11,701 nucleotides of DNA, taken from the UHGV virus genome UHGV-0310186. One strand, given 5' to 3'. The translations under genes and the position numbers were made by a program. Origin of the DNA: a virus. Position 1 is the stretch's first letter, and each line of letters opens with the position of its first letter. The notes under the pieces are model-generated. The model was not told the DNA's origin and searched no databases. It was given only the letters and a program-made list of their open reading frames with translations. Below are positions 1 to 11,701 of the stretch, piece by piece.

Positions 1-102
1 GTGTGAAGTGGGGACGGACACCGCAAAAGAAATTCTCTATGCCCGTATGAAAGCCGAGCCCACGCCTGCGGATGAAGCCACGTCGTATGCCATCCGTTTT
101 CC
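1..102 (+). repeat. Inverted copy of an internal terminase-A segment; reverse complement of 834-935
   Basis: Direct comparison: window 1-102 equals the reverse complement of 834-935 with no mismatch seen. It reads in-frame as the terminase A peptide [34 protein letters not shown] on the plus strand. Confidence 0.8.
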
Positions 103-195
103 CAGATCAAGCTGCCAGCGTTGCACGGACACACGTAATGCAGCGTAGGCATACACCAGGCAGTCCAGCGCTTCGTTACGCCGCTTTTTGTTATC
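102..195 (-). repeat. Direct copy of terminase-A 3' segment 643-736 (1 mismatch)
   Basis: Window 102-195 matches 643-736 in the same orientation with one substitution (gtaatgcAgcg vs gtaatgcCgcg). On the minus strand it encodes [32 protein letters not shown]. Confidence 0.8.
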
Positions 196-397
196 TACAG
201 TAGCTGAACTGCAGGCGCTGCGTCAGGCGCGCCTTGATTTATTAACCGGTAAACGGGTGGTGTCTGTCCAGAAAGATGGACGAAGAATTGAATATACGGC
301 GGCCTCTCTGGATGAGCTTAACCGTGCGATCAATGATGCTGAGTTGGTACTGGGGACAACCCGCCGTCGCCGTCGTCCGCTGGGAGTGAGGTTATGA
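188..397 (+). CDS. W: gpW-like head completion / head-tail joining protein, plus-strand copy; native start replaced, ORF opens at a TTG inside the junction
   Basis: 69-aa ORF ...[66 protein letters not shown] resembles lambda gpW (68 aa; ...[24 protein letters not shown]...RRRGPAGFYV). Its stop overlaps a following ATG (ATGA) as at the lambda W-B junction. Confidence 0.55.
196..290 (+). repeat. Left arm of a 95-bp inverted repeat (W 5' coding region); partner 462-556
   Basis: 196-290 equals the reverse complement of 462-556 with one mismatch (acagtAgctg vs acagtCgctg). The arms flank a 171-bp unique segment (291-461). Confidence 0.85.
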
Positions 398-510
398 AAC
401 GAACGCCTGTCCTGATTGATGTGAACGGCGTTCCGCTTCGGGAGAGCCTCAGCTACAAATTCAATTCTTCGTCCATCTTTCTGGACAGACACCACCCGTT
501 TACCGGTTAA
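394..510 (+). pseudogene. B: Portal protein (lambda gpB-like) N-terminal fragment, cut after about 22 codons
   Basis: An ATG overlapping the W stop opens [21 protein letters not shown], similar in position and composition to the lambda gpB N-terminus (..GPDGMTSLREYAGY..). The frame then runs into the inverted W repeat and ends at 508-510. Confidence 0.4.
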
Positions 511-561
511 TAAATCAAGGCGCGCCTGACGCAGCGCCTGCAGTTCAGCGACTGTAACCAT
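462..561 (-). pseudogene. W: gpW 5' fragment on the minus strand (native ATG, first 33 codons), then runs into unrelated antisense sequence
   Basis: The ATG at 561-559 sits directly after the terminase A stop, in the lambda A-W position. It encodes [35 protein letters not shown]; homology is lost at about 462, the edge of the inverted repeat. Confidence 0.5.
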
Positions 562-2473
562 TCACTCCTCCGGACAGCTTCGCTGCCAGTTCTTTAAGGG
601 TTGGCCGGGTCGTCTCTTCTTCCCGGGATTTTGCCAGTACAGCCAGATCAAGCTGCCAGCGTTGCACGGACACACGTAATGCCGCGTAGGCATACACCAG
701 GCAGTCCAGCGCTTCGTTACGCCGCTTTTTGTTATCCCACAGCAGACGCATCTTTCCTTTTTCCCACTTCTCCACAAGCTCTTCCGCGACCAGTTGCTGC
801 GCCTCTGTCTGCGAAAAAATCTCCGGATCATCAGGAAAACGGATGGCATACGACGTGGCTTCATCCGCAGGCGTGGGCTCGGCTTTCATACGGGCATAGA
901 GAATTTCTTTTGCGGTGTCCGTCCCCACTTCACACAGATAAACGCCCCGCTGATTGCGGGTTTTCGGCATGGTGATCACCGGCTTGCCATAGACAGACGC
1001 GCCTTTTACCGGCAGCACACGGAAAACACCGTGTTTTTTTGACCTCTGGTAGACGATTTCACCATCGATCCCCCCGGTGTCCCAGCAGACACGGGAAATG
1101 GTCATTTCGGTGCCATCCGCATGGCGGTATTTTTTGTTGATCGCCGCATCCACACGTAACAGCGTCTCTTCCTCATCAGGACGCCCCATAATGATGATTT
1201 TATCCACCAGAAAAGCTTCCTCTCCCGGTGCCCATCCCCAGACATACATCTCAAAACGGTTTCGCTGCGAGTCAATGCCCGCCGTCAGATAAACCACCCG
1301 GGCAGGCACCGCCGCCGTGTAACGCACAACCTTATCCATCAGCACCTGGTGATCGAGTTTTTCGCCCACGGCCTCTTCCCAGGTCTCGCCCAGCGTGGTG
1401 TTCACAAAGGTTTTCAGGCCGTTGGAATCTTTCAGTGCATCCAGCCAGTCATAGACTATCTGTACCCAGGTGGTGAACGGACTGTACGCTGTCCAGATAT
1501 GGAACGTGATGGAGCGCGGCGGCGGAATTTCATTATCCGCGGCGCTGAAAAACGTCAGACCGTCACGGGTCCACATCCCCGTGTTTTCACAGATCCACCG
1601 CCCGTTGCTCTGGTCAAGCTCAGACTGATGGATCACGCAGCCATGATGTTCACAGAGGTAGAAAACGCTTTCGGGGCTGTCCTTCTCCCATTTAAGGCCA
1701 AAAGGCGTGGATTCATCGCCAAATTTCAGATACTGCTCCTCCCCACAGTGTGGGCAGGGCACATAAAAACGCATGAAATGCGCCGACTCGTTGGCCGCTT
1801 TTTCGATCTGGCAGGTGCCTTTGATTTTAGGCGTCGAGCCGCGAATGGATTTGGGCCATACAGAGCCCTCAATACGTTTATCCCCAAGCAGGGTTGGCGA
1901 ACCCTCTTTTTCGACATCCGGTTCGAACGAGGAAAGTTCGTCATAGCAGACCACGTCCACGGATTTTTCACGGTAGTTTTTGGCGGCAGCGCCGCCCAGG
2001 CACCAGAAACCCACACCCGATGAAAAGCGTTTCAGCGTGAGGGTATTGTCACGATGTTTACGCCCCAGCCATGGAAAAAGGTCTTTCAGACATGGCACAT
2101 CCCGAATCGTCGCCTCCACGTGAGACTTCATAAAATCTTCAGCGGCAGAATCCGTGGGCTGAAAAAGCAGACTGTTTCGGGATTTATGCTCAATAAAATA
2201 CCCGACCACCCCCAGCAACATCTTTGTATAGCCAACACGGGCAGATTTAATCAGATTAACAGTCCGGATCTGATCATTCCCCATGCTGTTCATGATGGCG
2301 ATCTGGAACGGCAGCGTTTTCCATTCTCCCTCACCATATGAAGATTCTTTAGGCAGATAATAATTTTGATCAGCCCATTCAACTGGCGTCACCGGCAATG
2401 CCCTTATCAGGGGCTGTAATGCTGTTGTGACAGCACTCATCATATTATTCAGTTGTTGCTCTGATATATTCAT
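545..2473 (-). CDS. A: Terminase large subunit (lambda gpA family)
   Basis: Long ORF that aligns end to end with lambda gpA as I recall it ([46 protein letters not shown]..., ...GIDSQ..., ...[13 protein letters not shown]...). Start placed at ATG 2473 (MNISEQ) rather than the upstream in-frame ATG at 2530. The start overlaps the 3' end of Nu1, as in lambda. Confidence 0.95.
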
Positions 2474-2954
2474 CGAGTAAATCCGGTAATTTATCCCCCG
2501 CCCGCGCACACTGATTTGCCCCCTTCGCAATAAGGGTTTTCAGATGGTCAAGATGGCGCGGTGTTAAATCAGGAAACTGTCGCTGCATGGATAAAGGGAT
2601 GGAATCAAGCGTACTGGATAACGCCATTGCCAGCTTGCTGAGGGCAAAAATACAGAACCCGGTATCAATAAGTTTTCCTTTTGACACCTCATTTTTTAAC
2701 TGCTGTGTAACAGCCTGTTCTGCTGTCAGTTCCCATCTGGCAATAAGCAATTTCTCCTCATAGTCGTCTTCGCTATCGCCATCAGGCACATCGTTTTTAC
2801 TTCTTCTCAGATACGATATGTAAAAATCGCGCCAGGCATCCAGATCCAGTTGCCCTCGCTTATTCGATATCGGGGCACCCGGCAATTTCTGCAATCTGCG
2901 AAGCTGGCGATCGGTCAGACTTAAATGCCTGGCAACTTCAGTCTGCGTAGCCAC
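2445..2954 (-). CDS. nu1: Terminase small subunit (lambda Nu1 family, divergent N-terminal DNA-binding domain)
   Basis: 169-aa ORF with a GTG start preceded by AGGTGAGGA. The C-terminal half resembles lambda Nu1 (TGFCIFALSKLAMALSSTLDSIPLSMQRQFPDLTPRHLDHLK...LLDEYI vs TAFCTFVLSRIAGEIASILDGLPLSVQRRFPELENRHVDFLK...LLSEYI). It lies immediately upstream of A, next to cos. Confidence 0.85.
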   Translation of the reverse strand: MATQTEVARHLSLTDRQLRRLQKLPGAPISNKRGQLDLDAWRDFYISYLRRSKNDVPDGDSEDDYEEKLLIARWELTAEQAVTQQLKNEVSKGKLIDTGFCIFALSKLAMALSSTLDSIPLSMQRQFPDLTPRHLDHLKTLIAKGANQCARAGDKLPDLLDEYIRATTE

Positions 2955-2996
2955 TCCTCACCTCGCAAAAACTCTCACTTCACAATCACAACAAAA

Positions 2997-3100
2997 CCGG
3001 TCATGTCCGGCTTACATGTCTATTTTTTGTGCATGTCCGGTTCACAGAAGACCTCTTTTTTTATTTTTCATATAGTTAACTTGAAGAGAAACCGGACATG
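2997..3100. promoter_or_regulatory. cosB-like terminase-binding region: three CATGTCCGG / CCGGACATG repeats plus an AT-rich spacer
   Basis: CATGTCCGG at 3002-3010 and 3032-3040, inverted CCGGACATG at 3092-3100, and an AT-rich tract at 3051-3090. Located between cosN and the Nu1 start, which is the cosB position in lambda (R3-I1-R2-R1 logic). Confidence 0.5.
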
Positions 3101-3170
3101 GTTCCCGGAAAATTTTCATAAATAGCGAAAACCCGCGAGGTCGCCGCCCCGTAACGGCCCGGATCGCCGG
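3101..3170 (-). other. cos: cos site core: cosN (cohesive-end sequence at 3138-3149) with flanking cosQ side
   Basis: The reverse complement of 3106-3150 reads GGGCGGCGACCTCGCGGGTTTTCGCTATTTATGAAAATTTTCCGG, which matches the first 45 nt of the lambda left end as I remember it. On the other side, ...CCGTTACGGGGCGGCGACCT matches the lambda right end. Confidence 0.8.
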
Positions 3171-3402
3171 AAAGGACCCGCAAAAATGATAATGGTTATC
3201 ATTTTCAATGTAGTCCGGTTTCTTCCACCATCGCACCGGACTGGCGACTATGAGGGGACAACGCCGCGCTCCGTTAACGCGGTAAACCCCGGTGTGTATC
3301 GTTTTTGATTATCCCCGCACACTCGCGCAGAGGAGTCTCCCTGTCGGGCTGCGGTCTCTGTTAATGAGGGAATACAGCGACGATACGGTGCATCAGCAAA
3401 AC

Positions 3403-3870
3403 TTAGTTCAGGCACTGAGTGCGGATATAGTCCTGTGCCCCTTCCAGCTGCTTCTGCATTGTCATCAACCGTTCTCTGAGGATGAAATAATCCCGTTCAG
3501 CGGTGTCTGCCAGTCGGGGGCCGGTTGCATTATCCACGCCGGAGGTGCCGGTGGCTTCACGCACGGTACCGGAGCAGGTGGCGTTGATCCGCAGGCGCTT
3601 ACGACCAGCGGCAACATCAGCACGCAGAGTTTCATTTTCAGCTCTCGCATCGGCTAATTCCCTCGAGTATCTGGCATCAAGTTCAGCGACATCACGCTGG
3701 CGTATCTGCATATCAGTAATTGTCGCGTTCGCCAGTTTCAGCTCACTGACTTTTTTATCGCGCTGCGCTTTGTAGGTGATGGCGTTATCGCGGTAATGAT
3801 TCAGCCCCAGACTAAGCACACCACAGGCTACCAGCAGGACAATAATCACCACACACAGAACACGGTTCAT
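3403..3870 (-). CDS. Rz: Rz i-spanin (inner-membrane spanin subunit)
   Basis: [75 protein letters not shown]... is close to lambda Rz (..[53 protein letters not shown]..). Start set at ATG 3870, not the upstream ATG at 3954. Confidence 0.9.
3465..3650 (-). CDS. Rz1: Rz1 o-spanin lipoprotein, embedded in Rz in another frame
   Basis: [61 protein letters not shown] resembles lambda Rz1 (MLKLKMMLCVMMLPLVVVGC...[32 protein letters not shown]). Lipobox LVVSAC, proline-rich. Confidence 0.85.
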
Positions 3871-3871
3871 A

Positions 3872-3958
3872 TCACCACCAACGGATTGCCCAGACCAGAA
3901 CAGCAATGGCCACAATACGAATGGCAAATGCCATTGCCCGAATAAGTTCAGCACTCAT
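3872..3958 (-). CDS. 28-aa hydrophobic peptide ORF, translationally coupled to Rz
   Basis: ATG at 3958; encodes [28 protein letters not shown]. Its TGA stop (3872-3874) lies 1 nt before the Rz ATG. Too short to appear in the supplied ORF track; coding status uncertain. Confidence 0.3.
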
Positions 3959-3969
3959 CTTTTTAAAGT

Positions 3970-4220
3970 TCACGATTTCAGCGCAATGACCAGTTTTGCC
4001 AGCCCATACAGCATCGGAGACACAGCAATACCAACAGCCACCCACTTAATAGCAAAAGCCAGCGCTCTGCTGATGTCATCAGTCACTGTCACCCCAGCAG
4101 CCCCGACGAAGACAACATCACCCAGGCGAGGGACAGAAAAAGAGCAACCAGCATTAGTGAAAATGAAATACCGACAATCACACACAGGACCTTTGCCGGC
4201 GTTATGAGTTTGTCTGACAT
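3970..4220 (-). pseudogene. Small membrane-protein gene, apparently frameshifted near 4095 in a G-rich run
   Basis: ATG at 4220 with an AAGGGG Shine-Dalgarno 5 nt upstream opens MSDKLITPAKVLCVIVGISFSLMLVALFLSLAWVMLSSSGLLG and stops at 4092-4094. Another frame continues directly with ..VTVTDDISRALAFAIKWVAVGIAVSPMLYGLAKLVIALKS to 3970. The motif RALAFAIKWVAVGIAV recurs as [14 protein letters not shown] in the 28-aa ORF downstream. Confidence 0.3.
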
Positions 4221-4390
4221 AGCTACCCCTTAATTGCCACAATTAACTGGGATACTACCCATAAAAAAGGGATGCTCCAGACCAGCAAAAATTTCCAGTT
4301 TGGTAATTGACTAATCATGAGTCGCAACTCCCTAATCAGTTTGCTAAAATCAATCAAGGCAGCCTCCCATAGCTTACTGCCATAAAAACA

Positions 4391-4423
4391 AAACCCCGCT
4401 TGCTGCCAACAAACGGGGTTTTT
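4391..4423. terminator. Bidirectional rho-independent terminator-like hairpin
   Basis: AAAACCCCG-(15-nt loop)-CGGGGTTTTT: GC stem CCCCG/CGGGG with an A-tract on one side and a T-tract on the other, so it could terminate either strand. About 90 nt downstream of the endolysin stop. Confidence 0.55.
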
Positions 4424-4512
4424 ACTTTTATTCACTTACATTTTGCCAGTTCGCAGGATTTCGTGTTATCCGTCCGCCTTGGCCAACGTCATTTATTAGC
4501 AAAATATTCTGC

Positions 4513-4875
4513 TTATCTGTCGATTCCCCAGCACGCCAGCGCGCTCTCCTGGTCACGACGGGATACCTGACCGTAACAGTTATTTGAGCGAATACGGCAG
4601 TCCCTGCCACCGTCCTTAATCCACCAGCGAATCGCCTCACACGCTCCCCTGCGGTCACCAGCATTCAGCCGCTTATAAAACGTCGACGGGAAACACTTAC
4701 CGGGGCCAATGTTATAGGGACAGAATGACGCTATACCCGCTTTCTGTGGTTCGGTCAGTGGAACTTTAATATTGCGCTCCACCCATGCCAGCGCCTTATC
4801 CCGTTCAATGGCATTAACCTGGTCGCATTTTTCCTTCGACAGTTTCATGCCCGGAATAACAGGTTTACCATCCAC
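4513..4875 (-). pseudogene. R: Endolysin (phage lysozyme, SAR-endolysin R21/933W-R type) 3' portion, detached from its 5' portion
   Basis: VDGKPVIPGMKLSKEKCDQVNAIERDKALAWVERNIKVPLTEPQKAGIASFCPYNIGPGKCFPSTFYKRLNAGDRRGACEAIRWWIKDGGRDCRIRSNNCYGQVSRRDQESALACWGIDR aligns with the C-terminal two-thirds of P21-type lysozymes. It lacks the SAR domain and catalytic Glu, and begins at a GTG created by the junction. Confidence 0.85.
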
Positions 4876-4915
4876 CTAATCCTCTACTGAAATTGTCAGA
4901 TATATTTCAGCCATC
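4832..4915 (-). repeat. Left composite inverted-duplication block: copy of element a (4832-4875) and element b (4877-4915)
   Basis: 4832-4875 is the exact reverse complement of 5173-5216 (44 bp); 4877-4915 is the exact reverse complement of 5218-5256 (39 bp). Element b contains the 7-bp palindromic arms CTGAAAT/ATTTCAG and a GAGGA Shine-Dalgarno. Confidence 0.9.
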
Positions 4916-5001
4916 AGGAAAAACGCCAGTGTCCTACCGCTGGCGGGCTGAAGATTTAACATATCCAGGGATTCGGAACCGATAAATCCTGATAAATATC
5001 C

Positions 5002-5226
5002 ATGAACACCAAAATCAAATATGGCCTGTCGGCTGCCGTTCTGGCGTTGATTGCCATCGGTGCGCCTGCGCCTGATATTCTCGACCAGTTTCTGGATGAA
5101 AAAGAAGGTAACCACACAACGGCATACCGTGATGGTGCGGGTATCTGGACCATCTGCCGCGGTGCCACAATGGTGGATGGTAAACCTGTTATTCCGGGCA
5201 TGAAACTGTCGAAGGAAGATGGCTGA
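5002..5226 (+). pseudogene. R: Endolysin 5' portion (SAR signal-anchor and catalytic E-8aa-D-5aa-T motif) ending at a premature stop
   Basis: MNTKIKYGLSAAVLALIAIGAPAPDILDQFLDEKEGNHTTAYRDGAGIWTICRGATMVDGKPVIPGMKLSKEDG*: a Gly/Ala-rich SAR domain followed by the lysozyme catalytic motif. It shares the 15 codons VDGKPVIPGMKLSKE with the minus-strand 3' portion, then runs into element b and stops. Confidence 0.85.
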
Positions 5227-5256
5227 AATATATCTGACAATTTCAGTAGAGGATTA
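5173..5256 (+). repeat. Right composite inverted-duplication block: element a (5173-5216) and element b (5218-5256)
   Basis: Same two elements as 4832-4915, each inverted. Order is a then b on this side, b then a when the left block is read on the minus strand. Confidence 0.9.
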
Positions 5257-5259
5257 ACC

Positions 5260-5574
5260 ATGCATAACGATCAACATAATTATGATTTATGCCTGCAAGC
5301 CATAAATGAGCGGGTAAAATCAGAGTGCCTCTTACTCCTCCCACAAGAACACGATGCAGTAAAATCCATTCAGGCTGAGCCGTATGGACATCTCACACCT
5401 GTGACTCTCGGCATTATCGCCAGAGCATTAACACAGCCCATGCTTATGCGTATTAAGACCAATATAAATAACTGGTTGAATGAAGAATTAAGCTACCTTG
5501 ATTGTGAGTGGGACAATCATTACGCAAAAACACAAAAAGAACGCATCTTCAGTCGATTATCCAGCAACAGATAA
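5260..5574 (+). CDS. Hypothetical protein (104 aa), plus strand, convergent with the 268-aa ORF
   Basis: ATG at 5260 preceded by AGAGGA inside element b; 104 codons, lower GC than the flanking phage genes. No family recognised by eye. Confidence 0.45.
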   Translation: MHNDQHNYDLCLQAINERVKSECLLLLPQEHDAVKSIQAEPYGHLTPVTLGIIARALTQPMLMRIKTNINNWLNEELSYLDCEWDNHYAKTQKERIFSRLSSNR

Positions 5575-5583
5575 CGAGCCACC

Positions 5584-6390
5584 TTATATACGCCCTTTCA
5601 GATAAGTCATCCCCGGCTGCATCCAGTCAACAGGTGCTTTCTTAAAGGGCGTATTATCAAAATCACGCAGAAGAGCCTCCAGCACAACTGCATCATTGTC
5701 AGCACCACTGGCCATCATTTCAATCTCAGCTGCTACCTGCAGATATCCCATGCAACGACCAATGCGCTTCATCAGCCCCTGCTTTTTATTGTTCTTCAGG
5801 TAATCAATGGCAAATTCAATGAGCGCCTCACTATGCTGGTGCGATGGCGGTGTTAATTTCCCATTTTCTGAGATGGTTATTTTCCCGCCATCTCCGTATA
5901 CAACAAAGGATGGCCGGTTACACTCCCATTCCTGATCTTTATCAGGTGCAGACGCAATAAAATAACGTTTATTTCCTTCCTCTCCGGCACTTTTAACCGT
6001 AATGGAGTACTCAGACTGCAGACAAGACGCCTCTTTTTCTGACCGCAGTGTTGACGGCGGCATCTTCAGAGAACAAGTAATTCTTCCCGGTAGCTTTCCT
6101 TTGTAGGTTATCAACACATCCTGCGCCTCTAAAATTACGGGGCGCTTTTCCGGCAACGGTTCGTTCCATTCACATAACCCGGCAGCAACATCCATGAAAA
6201 ACTGCTTCGCCTGCTTTTTCGCCTCAGCTTCGTAAAACTCCAGCGTGGCACCTTCAGTACGGTCAAGACTAATCGCCACATCTGGCAACAACAGCGACGC
6301 TTGCCCGTCACCTTCCGGCTTCACAGTAACAGTAACCTTATCCCCGTAATTATTTATCCCCTTAACAACCAGTTCATATTTTTTATTCAT
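5584..6390 (-). CDS. Hypothetical protein (268 aa) between holin and endolysin, translationally coupled to the holin
   Basis: ATG at 6390 lies 4 nt after the holin stop, with a GGGGAGAG Shine-Dalgarno inside the holin 3' end. Long uninterrupted ORF; no family recognised by eye. Confidence 0.65.
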   Translation of the reverse strand: MNKKYELVVKGINNYGDKVTVTVKPEGDGQASLLLPDVAISLDRTEGATLEFYEAEAKKQAKQFFMDVAAGLCEWNEPLPEKRPVILEAQDVLITYKGKLPGRITCSLKMPPSTLRSEKEASCLQSEYSITVKSAGEEGNKRYFIASAPDKDQEWECNRPSFVVYGDGGKITISENGKLTPPSHQHSEALIEFAIDYLKNNKKQGLMKRIGRCMGYLQVAAEIEMMASGADNDAVVLEALLRDFDNTPFKKAPVDWMQPGMTYLKGRI

Positions 6391-6394
6391 CACT

Positions 6395-6610
6395 TTACTC
6401 TCCCCGCGCCGCCTTACGCCGGTCCTCTTTGATTTTGAAATACAGGTTAGTCAGGTACGTCAGCAGCCCAAACAGCAGACTCCCCAGCACGCCTATTGCC
6501 GCCCACTGAGACGGGGAAACCCTGTCCAGCAACTGCAGGAACCAGTAGCCCGTTCCCACCGCTGACGTGGTGTATGACACACCTGTTGTGATTTTTTCCA
6601 TCTGGTACAT
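6395..6610 (-). CDS. S: Pinholin (phage 21 S21 family) with dual-start motif
   Basis: [71 protein letters not shown] is near-identical in pattern to P21 S21 (..[51 protein letters not shown]). Two in-frame starts (MYQM..., MEK...) fit a holin/antiholin pair. GGGAGA Shine-Dalgarno. Confidence 0.9.
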
Positions 6611-6686
6611 ACCCCGTCTCCCGTTATCCGGAAGCTCACAACAATATAAAGACCACCGGCACACACCGATGGTCCCTTGCGCAGGC

Positions 6687-6932
6687 TTACATCATCATGT
6701 CGCTGTCAGGTGTGGGTTCACCGCCATCTGAAGCACTCCCGTCACCCGCGATACCTTCCGGCTCCGGAACCGCTGGTACGCCCAGCAGCTCATCCAGAAT
6801 GGCATCCACTTCTGCATCAAGACGCGACTCAAGGTTCTGGCGGAGTTTCTGTTTCAGTGCGCTCAGGACTTCTTCAGAGCGCAGGACTTCCTTCACTGCC
6901 TCAGCAGTGACCAGGGATGTGATTTCTGACAT
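6687..6932 (-). CDS. Hypothetical acidic protein (81 aa)
   Basis: Internal ATG at 6932 of the 139-aa track ORF gives [81 protein letters not shown]. Sits between NanS-p and the holin. Confidence 0.4.
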
Positions 6933-6969
6933 GGGATTTTCTCGTTGAAAGGTGTTGTCAAGAAAGTGA

Positions 6970-7152
6970 CTACGGAATGAGCGGATCTTCGGGTTTGCTT
7001 CCGGCTGACTGACTGGCGCTGATTCTCTCAGCGGCCCTTTTATCAATCTGCCTGCGCCAGAAATCGCGCACTGCCCTGTACCCACCCGAAAGAAGATACA
7101 TAACACAGACTGCCATACAGAAGTACAGCATTACCTGATGAATAAATGTCAT
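6970..7152 (-). CDS. Hypothetical small membrane protein (60 aa)
   Basis: ATG at 7152; hydrophobic N-terminal segment (VMLYFCMAVCVMYLLSGGY) then a basic tail. Weak ribosome-binding site. Confidence 0.3.
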   Translation of the reverse strand: MTFIHQVMLYFCMAVCVMYLLSGGYRAVRDFWRRQIDKRAAERISASQSAGSKPEDPLIP

Positions 7153-7250
7153 AATTTCTTACCGTTATGGTTGACAATGAGAACTGTTTTCATTTAGAAA
7201 TGATTGATGTCGAAAGCATCTTTTCTTTACATTCTCCATTGGGATTACCT

Positions 7251-7287
7251 CCGCCAGCTTCCATTCCTGCCGCTGGCGGCTTTTTTT
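7251..7287 (+). terminator. Hairpin plus T7 tract oriented for the plus strand, directly 3' of the NanS-p stop
   Basis: CCGCCAGC-(13-nt loop)-GCTGGCGG followed by CTTTTTTTAT. On the minus strand the A-tract precedes the stem, so for the NanS-p transcript it would be a 3' stabilising hairpin rather than a canonical terminator. Confidence 0.4.
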
Positions 7288-7288
7288 A

Positions 7289-9250
7289 TCATGCCGCGAT
7301 GTCCGCGTTGTTCACTTCCACCTTCACACTGTCAATCAGCAGCGTATATGTCGCCGCCTTTGATATGCCTGTCAGTTGCAGTTTGTCCGCCGCCCCTGAT
7401 GCCGGAGATTTCACCAGTGTGAACGGCGTCCCCCGTTTCTCATCCAGTACCGGCGTCACCTGAATGCTGTTGTTTCCGGCAAACTCAAAAGCCAGTGTGT
7501 GCCATCCGTTATCAAAGACCCCGAACGTTTCCAGCTTCGCATTCGGCTTCTTGTGGTGCATCGCGTTCAGGTTCGTCGCATCCGTCTGCAGAAAGAAGGA
7601 CATCAGCATGTCGTTGCCTTCCTCTGCCAGCGTCACTCCCTCCGGCAGGGACGACAACTGCCAGTAAATGCCCAGGGCAAACTGATTCGGCACCAGTGAA
7701 CCCGGCAACTTAAACCGTACGCTCACACGTCCCCCCTTCTTCAGTAACTCCACTCCCTGTCCGGCTGCATCATGCTCCAGAAACCAGATGTGGTTTTCCG
7801 GTTTATTCAGTTGCAGGGCCTTACCTCCCGTAGCCCCCGCATCACTGACCACCGCTTCAGCAATGTTTTTGTTAACATTGTCTCCGCTCGCCGGTTTGTG
7901 ATAATAGCGCCAGCCCTGTGATGCCAGGTCTTCGCCGGACGCCAGCAGACTCATCAGGGTTCGGTTACTGACCGGGGCTTCCGGCTCTCTCTCCGTACCT
8001 TCACCGGAAGGTCCGGTGGGCTTCACCGTATCAGGCTGTTTTCCGGTAATGAATTCAGCGTTTCTCCCGGCATGCACAAGAATCGCCGTTGCCAGACGGT
8101 CGGAAATAATCCCACGACGTGCCCATGATCCAAAATGCGTTTTACGGTCGGCCGTCGTCCAGGTTTTGGCGTCCGTTCGACCACCGGCTCCGTAATACCC
8201 AATATCCGCAACATCCGGATCTTCTGACGGCTCGTTGGTACCCACATTTCGCCCGTTTTCATCCGTCATAAACGGCACAAAGAAGATTTTTTTTGCGGAT
8301 TTCGTCTTGTATGCACCATACACCGCATCGTATTGCGAAGAATAAGTCTGCTTCCAGTAGTAGGTCGTGTCGCCACAAATCCAGGGAACCGATGACGGAG
8401 AGCCCCCGAGACACTGACCTCCGAATTCCGACAGGTCAGAACGATATTTTTCCACCATGGAATCAAACAGCCCCGGCTGAGTGGCGTATGCACCCTGTTT
8501 CAAATCAAACTCGCCCTGCATCCAGACCACTGCAAGCAGAATATTTTTAGGGTTGGCCTTCAGTGCGGCCTGAGTACGGGTAAGCAGGTCCTTGTACAGT
8601 GGCTTATCAACACCCCAGCGTGCCGAGGTCTCGCTTGCGCCGGTGGATTCGCTGAAGGTACCTTCATCGCCCGCCAAAAATGCAGAACCACCACGGCAGC
8701 ACGGAACCAGAAGAATACCGGCATTCGCCGGAATAAACGGCAACAATTTCTTCGCGATATGTAATCCCTGCCCCACGCATCCATACTGAGCTGCGCTGGC
8801 TTTCGGGTGTGAAAACTTACTCAAATCCTGAACATCATGCAGGCAGTGGTCCGCAGGAATAATGTCATTGTAGTTACAGGACGCACCACCCGGCGTGACA
8901 GTGCTGCGACGCGCCAGCTGTTTAATACGCGGGTCCGGACGGTCATATGTCTCCGGCAGCGGAAGCCCTTCACCATACGCCATACCGTTTGACTGCCCGG
9001 CCAGGGCAACAACAAAGTAATACTCCGGGTTGCTGGTGGTGCTGATAACTGCGCCTTCTCCATCCGACGGCTTCACCACCACAGGTGTGGTGACATCACC
9101 TTCCGCCGCAATGGCCTGCATCAGGGTATAAGGCGTGATGGCCACCGGACTGCCAAATGGCTGCCACCCCTCCTTCAGTTTTTGTGTCAGTCGTTTCGCA
9201 AGGTCTGACGGCGATGCCGCCCTGACAACATCATAGTGTTTAAATGCCAT
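7289..9250 (-). CDS. nanS-p: Prophage sialate O-acetylesterase NanS-p-like protein (DUF1737-type N-terminus, SGNH/SASA esterase core, C-terminal carbohydrate-binding region)
   Basis: A roughly 650-aa ORF sitting between the tRNA/toxin locus and the holin, which is where Stx-type prophages carry nanS-p (933W L0105/Z1466-like). Start set at ATG 9250 (MAFKHY, GGTGGAAAG Shine-Dalgarno) rather than 9265. Assignment is by recalled architecture and size, not a run alignment. Confidence 0.75.
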   Translation of the reverse strand: MAFKHYDVVRAASPSDLAKRLTQKLKEGWQPFGSPVAITPYTLMQAIAAEGDVTTPVVVKPSDGEGAVISTTSNPEYYFVVALAGQSNGMAYGEGLPLPETYDRPDPRIKQLARRSTVTPGGASCNYNDIIPADHCLHDVQDLSKFSHPKASAAQYGCVGQGLHIAKKLLPFIPANAGILLVPCCRGGSAFLAGDEGTFSESTGASETSARWGVDKPLYKDLLTRTQAALKANPKNILLAVVWMQGEFDLKQGAYATQPGLFDSMVEKYRSDLSEFGGQCLGGSPSSVPWICGDTTYYWKQTYSSQYDAVYGAYKTKSAKKIFFVPFMTDENGRNVGTNEPSEDPDVADIGYYGAGGRTDAKTWTTADRKTHFGSWARRGIISDRLATAILVHAGRNAEFITGKQPDTVKPTGPSGEGTEREPEAPVSNRTLMSLLASGEDLASQGWRYYHKPASGDNVNKNIAEAVVSDAGATGGKALQLNKPENHIWFLEHDAAGQGVELLKKGGRVSVRFKLPGSLVPNQFALGIYWQLSSLPEGVTLAEEGNDMLMSFFLQTDATNLNAMHHKKPNAKLETFGVFDNGWHTLAFEFAGNNSIQVTPVLDEKRGTPFTLVKSPASGAADKLQLTGISKAATYTLLIDSVKVEVNNADIAA

Positions 9251-9510
9251 GGTTCTTTCCACCATCTGAAAAATAATTCTTTAAAATACCTGACATGTAA
9301 TACAGAAAAAACACAAAACCATACCTTAAATAAAAACCTCATCATCAAGCAGATATGCATGGATAAACTACAAGACGAGATATAAACCACCCTGCATTTA
9401 AATAAACAATAAACAACATCAGAAAAATAATTCTGCTCTATGGTTTACATTCAAAAATATCATTTATACTTTTCAGAACATCACCAGCAAGACATAAACA
9501 AGGAAACTAA

Positions 9511-9846
9511 ATGAAGTGGATTGTGATTGATACAGTTATCCAGCCATCATGCGGAATATCTTTTTCAGTCATATGGAGTAAAATAAAATTAATAATCTGG
9601 TATCAATCGGATGCTTTCTTACCTCCTGAAAGTATATTTACACTGACTCACACAGGTATCATGCTCAATAACAAAGTGCTACCTGTAACCATTTACAACG
9701 TAGCACCATTCAATAAAACATTCTGGAATTTAATCAAAAACAGCCAGGAATGTCCTACAAATACAGATAACGTATTGAATGAATGCTTTAATAACCGTTG
9801 CACTCTGCAAATATGTCCTTATGGACTAAAACAACAAAGTCCATAA
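9511..9846 (+). CDS. Hypothetical protein (111 aa) in an AT-rich moron, opposite strand to the late operon
   Basis: ATG preceded by AAGGAAACTAA; about 245 bp of very AT-rich upstream sequence (9266-9510); low GC, Cys/Asn-rich product. No family recognised by eye. Confidence 0.5.
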
Positions 9847-9880
9847 GGAGTTTACTCACATCTGACAAAATCAATATAAA

Positions 9881-9902
9881 CAGCCCCTCCGGAGAGGGGC
9901 TG
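9881..9902 (-). terminator. GC-rich hairpin; terminator-like for the minus strand
   Basis: CAGCCCCTC-CGGA-GAGGGGCTG is a perfect 9-bp stem. On the minus strand it is followed by TTTATATTGATTTTG; on the plus strand no U-tract follows. Confidence 0.4.
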
Positions 9903-10293
9903 GAGAGTGGCGCTATGTGCCATTGCATGGTGCCGGGTGCCTCCCGGTGAATTCAGTACCAGCACCTGAATCCGCGATTATCCCATATACCTACTCGCTG
10001 ATTGCCCCTCCGCACAGGGGGATTCACCATGCCAGTTTCTTTTAACAAACTCCCCGCAAACCAGACAACAGTCAACCGCCTGAATTGTGAAGTATTTAAA
10101 AATTTCTCCCGCTAACTGATACCCGGCTAACAGTCTGGCGTTTTCTTTTTCAGCAACGGGAAAGCAACAACCACCACACCCGCCACCAGCACACCGTCAG
10201 CCAGCACTGACATTATCCGGCTGCTGCAATGCCACTCACAAAAACAGTAAGCAATCACTTTTTACCGTAACAAGTGATAATCCAGATATGTAT

Positions 10294-10620
10294 CTACCCC
10301 AGATGAGTAATCCGAAGTTCATCCATACCACAGGTCCTGGCTATTCTGTTGTACTCCTGAACAAGAGCAAATAATTCTGAATTAGCAACCATGAACTCAT
10401 CGCAAACCCTCTGAATAGCATCACTATTCAGAATAATAACGTCTCTTCCCGAAAGACGATCAGGAGTACAGAACAAAACTGTCAAACGGCTGAAGGCCTT
10501 TGCTCGTGCTGCATTGACTATATCAATACGCTGCCTAAGGATGAAACACCCCGACGCCTCATCAATATTCACTCTACCCACACCATATGAATGATAAATA
10601 TTTAATGCTGAAAAAACCAT
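10294..10620 (-). CDS. Hypothetical protein (about 108 aa) in the low-GC region downstream of the tRNAs
   Basis: ORF in the position occupied by stxA in Stx phages but unrelated in sequence. Start uncertain (ATG 10620 or TTG 10647). A possible sigma70-like promoter (TTGTCA-17-AAGTAT) lies upstream on the minus strand. Confidence 0.3.
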   Translation of the reverse strand: MVFSALNIYHSYGVGRVNIDEASGCFILRQRIDIVNAARAKAFSRLTVLFCTPDRLSGRDVIILNSDAIQRVCDEFMVANSELFALVQEYNRIARTCGMDELRITHLG

Positions 10621-10760
10621 TAGACCGTATAACAAACACTCAATCAATACTTAACAGAACTTTTATTTTTGACAAACATATAATATTTTCAACAATATCC
10701 TGAGCCAGGTATATTTCAGTATAAGGCTCTGCCGGAAGGAATCTGGAAGAATGAATATAG

Positions 10761-10834
10761 CGCGCTGTACTGGATTCGAACCAGTGACCGATTGCTTAGA
10801 AGGCAATTGCTCTGTCCGGCTGAGCTAACAACGC
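10761..10834 (-). tRNA. tRNA-Arg (anticodon TCT), phage-borne, no encoded CCA
   Basis: Hand-folded cloverleaf: acceptor GCGTTGT/ACAGCGC, D-stem GCTC/GAGC, anticodon stem ATTGC/GCAAT with loop CTTCTAA, T-stem ACTGG/CCAGT with loop TTCGAAT. Confidence 0.85.
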
Positions 10835-10934
10835 TGAATACCGATAATGGACCGCCATCGGGGACCCGCCCCCGCACCAACAACCCTGTTATCGCGTCGT
10901 CTGCTCTTCCTGATAAGCTAATGGCGGTTTGTGA

Positions 10935-11010
10935 TGGTGGCCCTTGCTGGATTTGAACCAGCGACCTGGCGATTATGAGTCGCTCGCTCTCACCACTGAG
11001 CTAAAGGGCC
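10935..11010 (-). tRNA. tRNA with CAT anticodon, most similar to tRNA-Ile2 (ileX/ileZ type) rather than elongator Met; CCA encoded
   Basis: GGCCCTTTAGCTCAGTGGTGAGAGCGAGCGACTCATAATCGCCAGGTCGCTGGTTCAAATCCAGCAAGGGCCACCA folds as a cloverleaf (acceptor GGCCCTT/AAGGGCC, anticodon loop CTCATAA, T-loop TTCAAAT) and is close to E. coli ileX as recalled. Confidence 0.85.
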
Positions 11011-11046
11011 GGGAGCAGAATAATAACGGTCCGTAATTAATTCCGC

Positions 11047-11071
11047 AATAAAAAACCCGCTCGGCGGCGGG
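11047..11071 (-). terminator. tR'-like rho-independent terminator downstream of pR'
   Basis: On the minus strand: CCCGC-CGCCGA-GCGGG followed by TTTTTTATT. Lies about 45-65 nt downstream of the predicted pR' start and upstream of the tRNAs. Confidence 0.7.
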
Positions 11072-11108
11072 TTGTAGAAACTCTTCTAACGTCAGGCATA
11101 AAAGGCCC

Positions 11109-11148
11109 ATCGTTATGACGAATTTACCACAGATTCCGGAAAAATCAA
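11109..11148 (-). promoter_or_regulatory. pR' late promoter with qut-like pause element
   Basis: On the minus strand: TTGATT (-35), 16-nt spacer, TAAATT (-10), then cgtcat and AACGATGGG. This mirrors lambda pR' (TAAATT ... AACGATGGG), where the -10-like AACGAT in the early transcribed region drives the sigma-dependent pause used by Q. Confidence 0.6.
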
Positions 11149-11153
11149 CCTTG

Positions 11154-11522
11154 TTACCTAGTTACCTTTTTTAACTGCCGCTCAGCCCATGCTTCTTCAA
11201 TATCAAACCGGGTCACCAGCGCATCATAGAATTTCTTAACTGTTTTTTCCCATGACGCGCGTGTTATCTGGTTTGTCACCTCGCATATAGCATTAAATGC
11301 CTCCGTTGATGGTAGTCTTTCATAGCCACGACCACCACAACGCTGGCAGTCTCTGATAACAGGCATACCACGTTTTACCGACTCTTCACGGTGAATGGCG
11401 ACACCACGCCCACGGCAATCCTTACAGGCGGTGGAAACCTCACCCTTTCCGCCACACTCCGGACAGGCAACTTTTACCACCTCCCTGACTTTTTTCCATT
11501 CTTCCCAGTAAGACGGATACAC
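11154..11522 (-). CDS. Q: Antiterminator Q (lambda Q family), zinc-finger C-terminal domain; N-terminus short or disrupted
   Basis: ...ACPECGGKGEVSTACKDCRGRGVAIHREESVKRGMPVIRDCQRCGGRGYERLPSTEAFNAI...WEKTVKKFYDALV...KKVTR parallels the lambda Q C-terminus (ARCRDCHGTGRAV...ECGRCKGVGYSRMPASAAYRAV...WSRTVKPLYDALV...LNAVTR). The only in-frame start is GTG at 11522, with an in-frame stop at 11619-11621, so the product is about 90 aa shorter than lambda Q. Confidence 0.6.
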   Translation of the reverse strand: MYPSYWEEWKKVREVVKVACPECGGKGEVSTACKDCRGRGVAIHREESVKRGMPVIRDCQRCGGRGYERLPSTEAFNAICEVTNQITRASWEKTVKKFYDALVTRFDIEEAWAERQLKKVTR

Positions 11523-11701
11523 ACCTTTCGTACACTTTGCCCATACCGGCGGCTTACCATCCGGATACTGGACCTTGTTTGTGGCATCAGTATGAATGAC
11601 AGGGTGCGGGCAACAGAATTACTGGCAGATTATGCACTCAGTCGGTGCGATCGTGTGGCGGCGTTGAGAAAACTTCCGGCAGAAATAAAACCGGTAGTGA
11701 T

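Follow-up and report, generated by a model that had tools for sequence, protein, structure and literature searches.

Left-end mosaic of a phage 21-like Escherichia coli prophage late region: a probable mis-joining artefact

Judged by its sequence, the window (the whole stretch of 11,701 nt that was analysed) is the late region of an ordinary phage 21-like lambdoid E. coli prophage, and the rearranged blocks at its left end are very probably (with a probability that we put at about 0.87) a mis-join or mis-orientation artefact and not a real feature or a biological rearrangement. The initial annotation of this DNA had read the blocks as a real fold-back, with the portal gene cut short and head assembly lost as a result, and had raised an artefact as the alternative. 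The fold-back finds no support, the window being a known intact prophage but for a set of blunt strand-switch joins and two private bases. The analysis reported below shows how the window tiles, that its joins are blunt and its junctions unique, and that the mismatches in the pasted blocks are private; from this we infer both the artefactual origin of the joins and the process that would have made them.

Results

The window tiles completely on a single prophage

As reference for the comparison we took the annotated prophage region of the complete genome of E. coli SCU-484 (locus L002; native arrangement on record in NZ_CP051744.1, 2905426-2924464). The window was aligned to this locus by BLAST, each block being then extended base by base. 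All 11,701 bases tile on the single prophage in seven blocks with six junctions, leaving neither gaps nor filler DNA. The window opens with three short blocks: positions 1-102 are the reverse complement of reference positions 4376-4477 (100% identity), positions 102-195 correspond in direct orientation to 4185-4278 (one mismatch), and positions 196-458 are the reverse complement of 3836-4098 (one mismatch). There follows a first colinear body (459-4876, direct, reference 4001-8418, 100%), a flipped block of 341 nt at the lysozyme site (4877-5217, reverse complement of 8373-8713, 100%), a second colinear body (5218-11582, direct, reference 8675-15039, 100%) and, at the right end, a flipped block of 119 nt (11583-11701, reverse complement of 15146-15264, 100%). 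No mismatch to the reference was found in the 10,783 colinear bases, nor in the flipped blocks of 102, 341 and 119 nt.

The first colinear body opens with the native 5' part of the gpW gene (459-561, minus strand), which has its ATG at 561 and retains 34 native codons. It also carries an intact gene for the terminase large subunit (gpA-type, 642 aa; 545-2473, minus strand; PF05876 and PF20454), whose product is identical to the native protein and which is the source of blocks 1 and 2, and an intact gene for the terminase small subunit (Nu1-type, 169 aa; 2445-2954, minus strand; PF07471). The second colinear body (5218-11582) holds a hypothetical gene, a YdfR pseudogene, genes for a class II holin, DUF826 and DUF1378 proteins, a SASA-family esterase, IraM and a DUF3927 protein, two tRNA genes, and the 3' part of a Q-type antiterminator gene.

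Some features of this second body deserve separate mention. The two tRNA genes lie at 10760-11010, downstream of the antiterminator gene, and were called by ARAGORN as Arg (TCT) and Met (CAT); the RefSeq annotation of the identical prophage has the CAT tRNA as tRNA-Ile, an assignment that would suit a lysidine-modified Ile2 tRNA, as in Stx-type lambdoid late regions. The esterase, a 653-aa SASA-family carbohydrate esterase of the NanS-p-like kind (7289-9250, minus strand, mapped from the reference locus), and the gene for the IraM anti-adapter (9511-9846, plus strand) sit between the tRNAs and the holin, are identical to the copies in complete genomes and look like prophage cargo genes. In Stx phages, stx is found in this interval between tRNAs and holin. 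A 21-nt direct repeat, CACCATCTGAAAAATAATTCT, has three copies upstream of the esterase gene, at 9260-9434 and 10581-10601 (100%, 90% and 76% identity), which may be due to chance or have a regulatory role.

The underlying locus is colinear in its relatives

A whole-window megablast against 5,426 complete E. coli genomes returned 49 that hold at least 80% of the window at one place. The best four tie in bit score at 100.0% identity, that is, three complete genomes besides SCU-484 reach the same top score, with positions 102-11582 aligned and every alignment split into several pieces. In the orientation of the window, the reference locus reads major capsid protein, decoration protein, S49 protease, portal, head-tail joining protein (W), terminase large subunit, terminase small subunit, Rz-type lysis protein, lysozyme, holin, SASA-family esterase, IraM, two tRNAs and Q-type antiterminator. 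Read the other way, the late region of the prophage runs from the Q antiterminator through the tRNAs, esterase, holin, lysozyme, Rz, Nu1, A and W to the start of portal.

A collection of 153 billion gene positions lists the window's intact terminase protein in 1,536 blocks; all eight places shown have a 68-aa gpW after it, with portal next in order. Identical proteins in other assemblies match the Pfam families Phage_Nu1, GpA_ATPase/GpA_nuclease, gpW and Phage_portal_2, again colinear in all eight loci shown. The portal protein is 530 aa long in six of these eight loci, and shorter or split in the other two, L007 and L008. The records of these two public assemblies give split or shortened open reading frames for portal and/or the S49 protease (L007, 5207-7870; L008, 5116-6708), which may be pseudogenes or errors of assembly.

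Terminase and W are 97.9% identical between phage 21 and the window, while the colinear body is 100% identical to E. coli prophages in complete genomes. Sequence identity to known members thus places the window with the Nu1-A-W-portal module; its genes, however, are not colinear on one strand, Nu1 and A being so but W and the start of portal being flipped and split at 458/459. The underlying prophage is therefore a member of the phage 21-type Nu1-A-W-portal family, whereas the arrangement seen in the window is not. Compared with the operon of phage 21 or of lambda type, the window has its W-portal junction turned round and joined on at W codon 34/35, with two stray pieces of the terminase gene ahead of it.

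Repeats and coding consequences at the left end

Repeat search and self-BLAST agreed on three repeats at the left end, and the repeated blocks in mixed orientation that had been described there are present in the sequence at 99-100% identity. Positions 1-102 and 834-935 form an inverted repeat of 102 nt (100% identical), positions 102-195 and 643-736 a direct repeat of 94 nt (one mismatch), and positions 196-293 and 459-556 an inverted repeat of 98 nt (one mismatch). Repeats of 94 to 102 nt at 99% identity or more cannot have arisen by chance in 11.7 kb. The last of the three had been recognised as an inverted copy with its length taken as 95 nt, against the 98 nt that we measured; the unique segment between its arms, given earlier as 171 bp, does exist, and because the repeat is 98 nt long it amounts to 165 nt (294-458).

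Block 1 (1-102, plus strand) contains codons ~513-547 of the terminase large subunit gene, reverse-complemented and cut by the start of the window; block 2 (102-195), which has one nucleotide in common with block 1 at position 102, contains codons ~580-611 of the same gene, antisense on the plus strand. Block 3 (196-458, plus strand) is the native W-portal junction in flipped orientation, running from the third base of W codon 2 to the W stop at 397 and including portal codons 1-21 (394-458). Followed leftwards from the body at reference position 4001, the sequence jumps to 3836 and goes back to 4098, jumps from there to 4278 and goes back to 4185, then jumps to 4376 and goes on to 4477, which is the window end.

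Translation bore out that neither copy of W is native. The minus-strand copy was rightly said to have the native ATG, but it retains 34 native codons and not 33; beyond these it reads on into antisense sequence, giving a chimeric open reading frame of 112 aa (561 to 223). The plus-strand copy begins at a foreign TTG at 188 and stops at 397, W residues 3-68 following three foreign codons (the TTG and two more). The portal reading frame, with its ATG at 394, stays native for 21 codons and 2 nt, up to the 458/459 junction; beyond it the frame reaches a stop at 510, for a total of 38 aa, so that it is indeed cut within the repeat.

The same pattern at the lysozyme site and at the right end

The pattern had been said to recur at the endolysin locus, and both repeat search and self-BLAST place it there, at 4877-5217. 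The flipped block of 341 nt overlaps its left neighbour by 46 nt (5172-5217 is an inverted copy of 4831-4876) and its right neighbour by 39 nt (4877-4915 is an inverted copy of 5218-5256), and in the repeat search the site (4831-5256) has the layout A B ... rc(A) rc(B). It divides the lysozyme gene: the plus strand carries the start, at 5002, with 72 N-terminal codons, and the minus strand carries, at 4513-4876, the 3' part of the gene, which codes for the C-terminal 120 residues (codons at 4875-4513) and is cut at the 4876/4877 junction.

At the right end, the last 119 nt (11583-11701) come, reverse-complemented, from a point 225 nt ahead in the native sequence, within the Q-type antiterminator gene; the right end is therefore a blunt turn-around as well. 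This block is cut by the window end and is not visible as a repeat inside the window.

All junctions are local, blunt strand switches

All six junctions are strand switches that join points 165 to 302 nt apart, the offsets being, from left to right, 191, 180, 165, 295, 302 and 225 nt. Five of the six share no nucleotide at the join and one shares a single nucleotide, a distribution which is that expected of random blunt joins. When all breakpoints were examined in the native sequence, none of the breakpoint pairs showed a native inverted repeat.

These observations bear directly on a site-specific invertible switch or recombination between inverted repeats, for instance a phase-variable segment at the lysozyme or W-portal junctions. 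Such a switch would account for segments that are inverted compared with relatives, but it would need bounding native repeats, and inversion between repeats creates no new duplications of the kind seen here; with breakpoints lying within coding sequence and the flipped junctions or alternative orientation present in none of the 5,426 complete genomes, we consider its probability close to nil. Hairpin telomeres or protelomerase sites were likewise rejected, as the turn-around loops are 165 to 302 nt long, lack bounding repeats and fall within coding sequence. No recombinase-like product is annotated near the junction sites in the reference locus.

The initial annotation had pointed to contig-end artefacts of a de Bruijn assembly as one possible source of blocks of this size. 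That particular mechanism does not fit, because a turn-around path in such a graph needs a shared k-mer while every junction shares 0 or 1 nt, and the breakpoints have no native inverted repeat; moreover, the duplicated overlaps are unequal (98, 46 and 39 nt) and so match no single k.

Such joins could also come from an amplification step in vitro (MDA, another whole-genome amplification or PCR) in which polymerase template switching or snap-back synthesis produced chimeric molecules that the assembly then reproduced faithfully. In MDA, 85% of chimeras are inverted and intramolecular joins of nearby segments are favoured (Lasken and Stockwell 2007, PMC1855051), and the six junctions of the window resemble this favoured type in that all are inverted and local, the second segment lying within 10 kb. 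The resemblance ends at the joins themselves: among inverted MDA junctions less than 10 kb apart, 93.5% have at least 2 bp of complementarity (2-21 nt; PMC1855051), whereas at least 2 nt is seen in none of the six joins here. Fold-back or duplicated-inversion artefact reads are also documented in long-read libraries, where the second segment lies within ~200 bp on the opposite strand (PMC12870357; also PMC13141652). As in those reads, the sequence of the window turns onto the opposite strand near the break, and both of its ends are turn-arounds; by the ~200-bp criterion, three of the six offsets fall at or below 200 nt (165, 180 and 191) and three above. Long-read fold-backs are, however, single turn-arounds, and the window differs from them in its offsets of 165-302 nt, its chained zig-zags of ~100 nt and its interior double junction. 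With two mismatches to the reference in 11.7 kb, and not one gapped alignment, the window is also far too accurate for a raw long read. At normal coverage, furthermore, correct molecules should outnumber each rare chimera, above all at the interior site. Taken with the lack of complementarity, this makes an in vitro origin of the chimeras highly improbable.

We also considered end-to-end joining of paired reads, R1 being followed by an R2 that was not reverse-complemented. Naive joining of this sort yields blunt strand switches whose offset equals insert size minus read length. It fits the offsets of 165-302 nt and the pieces of ~100 nt, but alone it leaves the blocks of 263 and 341 nt unexplained, and it was set aside.

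The tested junctions were not found in the other sequences searched

Queries of 120 nt across the 458/459 and 4876/4877 junctions were covered to at least 80% in none of the 5,426 complete E. coli genomes; among the matches listed, only one half of the query aligns, ending exactly at the junction. Shorter queries of 38 to 40 nt across the same two junctions were absent from IMG/VR, from JGI metagenome contigs and from GTDB (one genome per species). No record in the E. coli collection or among 50,697 phage records has positions 1-1300 of the window at 80% or more in one place, and the products of six chimeric open reading frames that depend on the junctions are not on record among the 153 billion gene positions, for which the intact terminase protein with its 1,536 blocks served as the positive control. 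Against the genuine fold-back, then, stand junctions that occur in no other sequence searched, and an A-W-portal order that is colinear, with a 68-aa W, in every related locus read. Within E. coli genomes the affected modules are multi-copy: copies of terminase/W number up to 5 (median 2), and as many as 7 places per genome carry the lysozyme region.

The absence of the two junctions from the 5,426 genomes and the three large collections also weighs against a genuine complex rearrangement in vivo, in which several local strand switches, by fold-back replication or staggered-break inversion, would have inactivated W/portal, lysozyme and Q in a decaying prophage of one strain. In its favour is the lysozyme site, where an interior inversion with inverted duplications of 46 and 39 nt has the layout of a staggered-break inversion or of two template switches; the match to the scheme A-rc(B)-rc(M)-rc(A)-B is exact, with A at 4831-4876, the flipped block at 4877-5217 and B at 5218-5256. 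An inversion flanked by inverted duplications is a classic product of staggered breaks or of two template switches, described mainly in eukaryotic genomes. The window differs from these cases in having neither population or phylogenetic support nor microhomology, and in combining four more junctions of the same kind with otherwise zero divergence. Instability does not rule the structure out, because E. coli should tolerate inverted repeats of 98-102 bp when their spacers are as long as those seen here (165-731 nt). A rearrangement in the cell would nevertheless require six non-homologous junctions within 11.7 kb together with zero substitutions, relative to several complete genomes, in 10.8 kb of colinear sequence, and it would require blunt, microhomology-free joins in a host without classical end joining; to our knowledge, E. 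coli has no NHEJ and no efficient pathway for blunt joins without microhomology. Two of the three sites also coincide with the ends of the window, although window ends may not be contig ends. On this balance we hold a rearrangement in vivo to be improbable.

The two differing bases are private and lie in pasted blocks

Only two positions differ between the window and SCU-484, position 142 in block 2 and position 202 in block 3, and both have A on the plus strand of the window where the native base is C. We calculated the probability that both would fall by chance in the 357 nt of blocks 2 and 3 as (357/11701)^2, or ~1e-3. The segments of 94 and 98 nt have ~2,970 homologous copies, spread over 1,860 complete genomes, and neither variant base occurs in any of them. 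In both segment searches the best single-piece match keeps one mismatch, and the sole entry above 99% in the search with the 94-nt segment is a join of two pieces and not a full-length match. As no homologous copy carries A at either position, the bases are private and do not stem from a paralogous prophage; recombination with such a copy, or its collapse into the assembly, was accordingly rejected as their source.

Point differences between the copies might be read in favour of a rearrangement in vivo, and the initial annotation had taken them as a mild argument against an assembler artefact. We favour the reverse, since they are the only differences in 11.7 kb and both are private and sit in pasted blocks; that the sole two substitutions are so placed speaks against an event in the cell. 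Private errors restricted to short misplaced pieces are the look of poorly supported, error-carrying sequence.

Discussion

The reading that we prefer is that of a prophage late region corrupted at three places by nearby native pieces, which would have been taken from no more than ~300 nt from the break and joined blunt in the wrong orientation. The left end would have received three pieces (of 102 nt or more, 94 nt and 263 nt), chained in alternating orientation onto the body at position 459, which would give rise to the apparent fold-back and to the two half-native copies of W. At the lysozyme site, a mini-contig of 341 nt that overlapped its neighbours by 46 and 39 nt would have been inserted flipped between them, and at the right end a piece of 119 nt would have been flipped. 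The pieces themselves may be single reads or mini-contigs (94, 102 or more, 119 or more, and 263 nt at the ends) from multi-copy lambdoid modules; short pieces would be expected at the three sites because assemblies fragment in such modules. On our reading the joins were made outside the cell, and the most economical way to obtain them is that short and poorly supported pieces were concatenated in the wrong orientation, with their overlaps left unmerged. The joining agent may have been an assembler, a scaffolder, a pseudomolecule step or other in-silico handling, and in the real genome A, W and portal would be colinear and intact.

A misoriented, concatenated contig or read would share with the window the flipped 341-nt piece overlapping its neighbours, the chains of ~100 nt at the ends, the blunt joins and the confinement of errors to small pieces; the window differs from that picture in having no N gap at the joins and in the unequal lengths of its overlaps. 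The artefact reading is also favoured by the fact that W/portal, lysozyme and Q, all essential late functions, are hit together in a prophage otherwise identical to intact relatives. It is weakened by joins that are unlike the best-described classes, having no shared k-mer and no complementarity of 2 bp or more, and by the inequality of the overlaps.

The same coincidence of three late-gene sites could be given a biological form, namely a single burst of local, homology-independent strand switching in one strain, in a freshly acquired prophage, which would have produced the fold-backs and the inversion with its inverted duplications and have disabled Q, lysis and head assembly at one stroke. 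Such a burst would resemble chromoanasynthesis at the scale of a prophage; we think it decidedly improbable.

With mis-joined or misoriented pieces as the preferred reading, the locus underneath is a prophage packaging module that is already well known. Annotating the window as it stands would falsely shorten portal and Q, split the lysozyme and add two pseudo-W genes, a matter of data hygiene, and calling the prophage defective on the strength of the window is unsupported by the evidence. Were the joins true, which we consider unlikely, the clustered, blunt, local strand switches would point to an undescribed homology-independent rearrangement process in E. coli.
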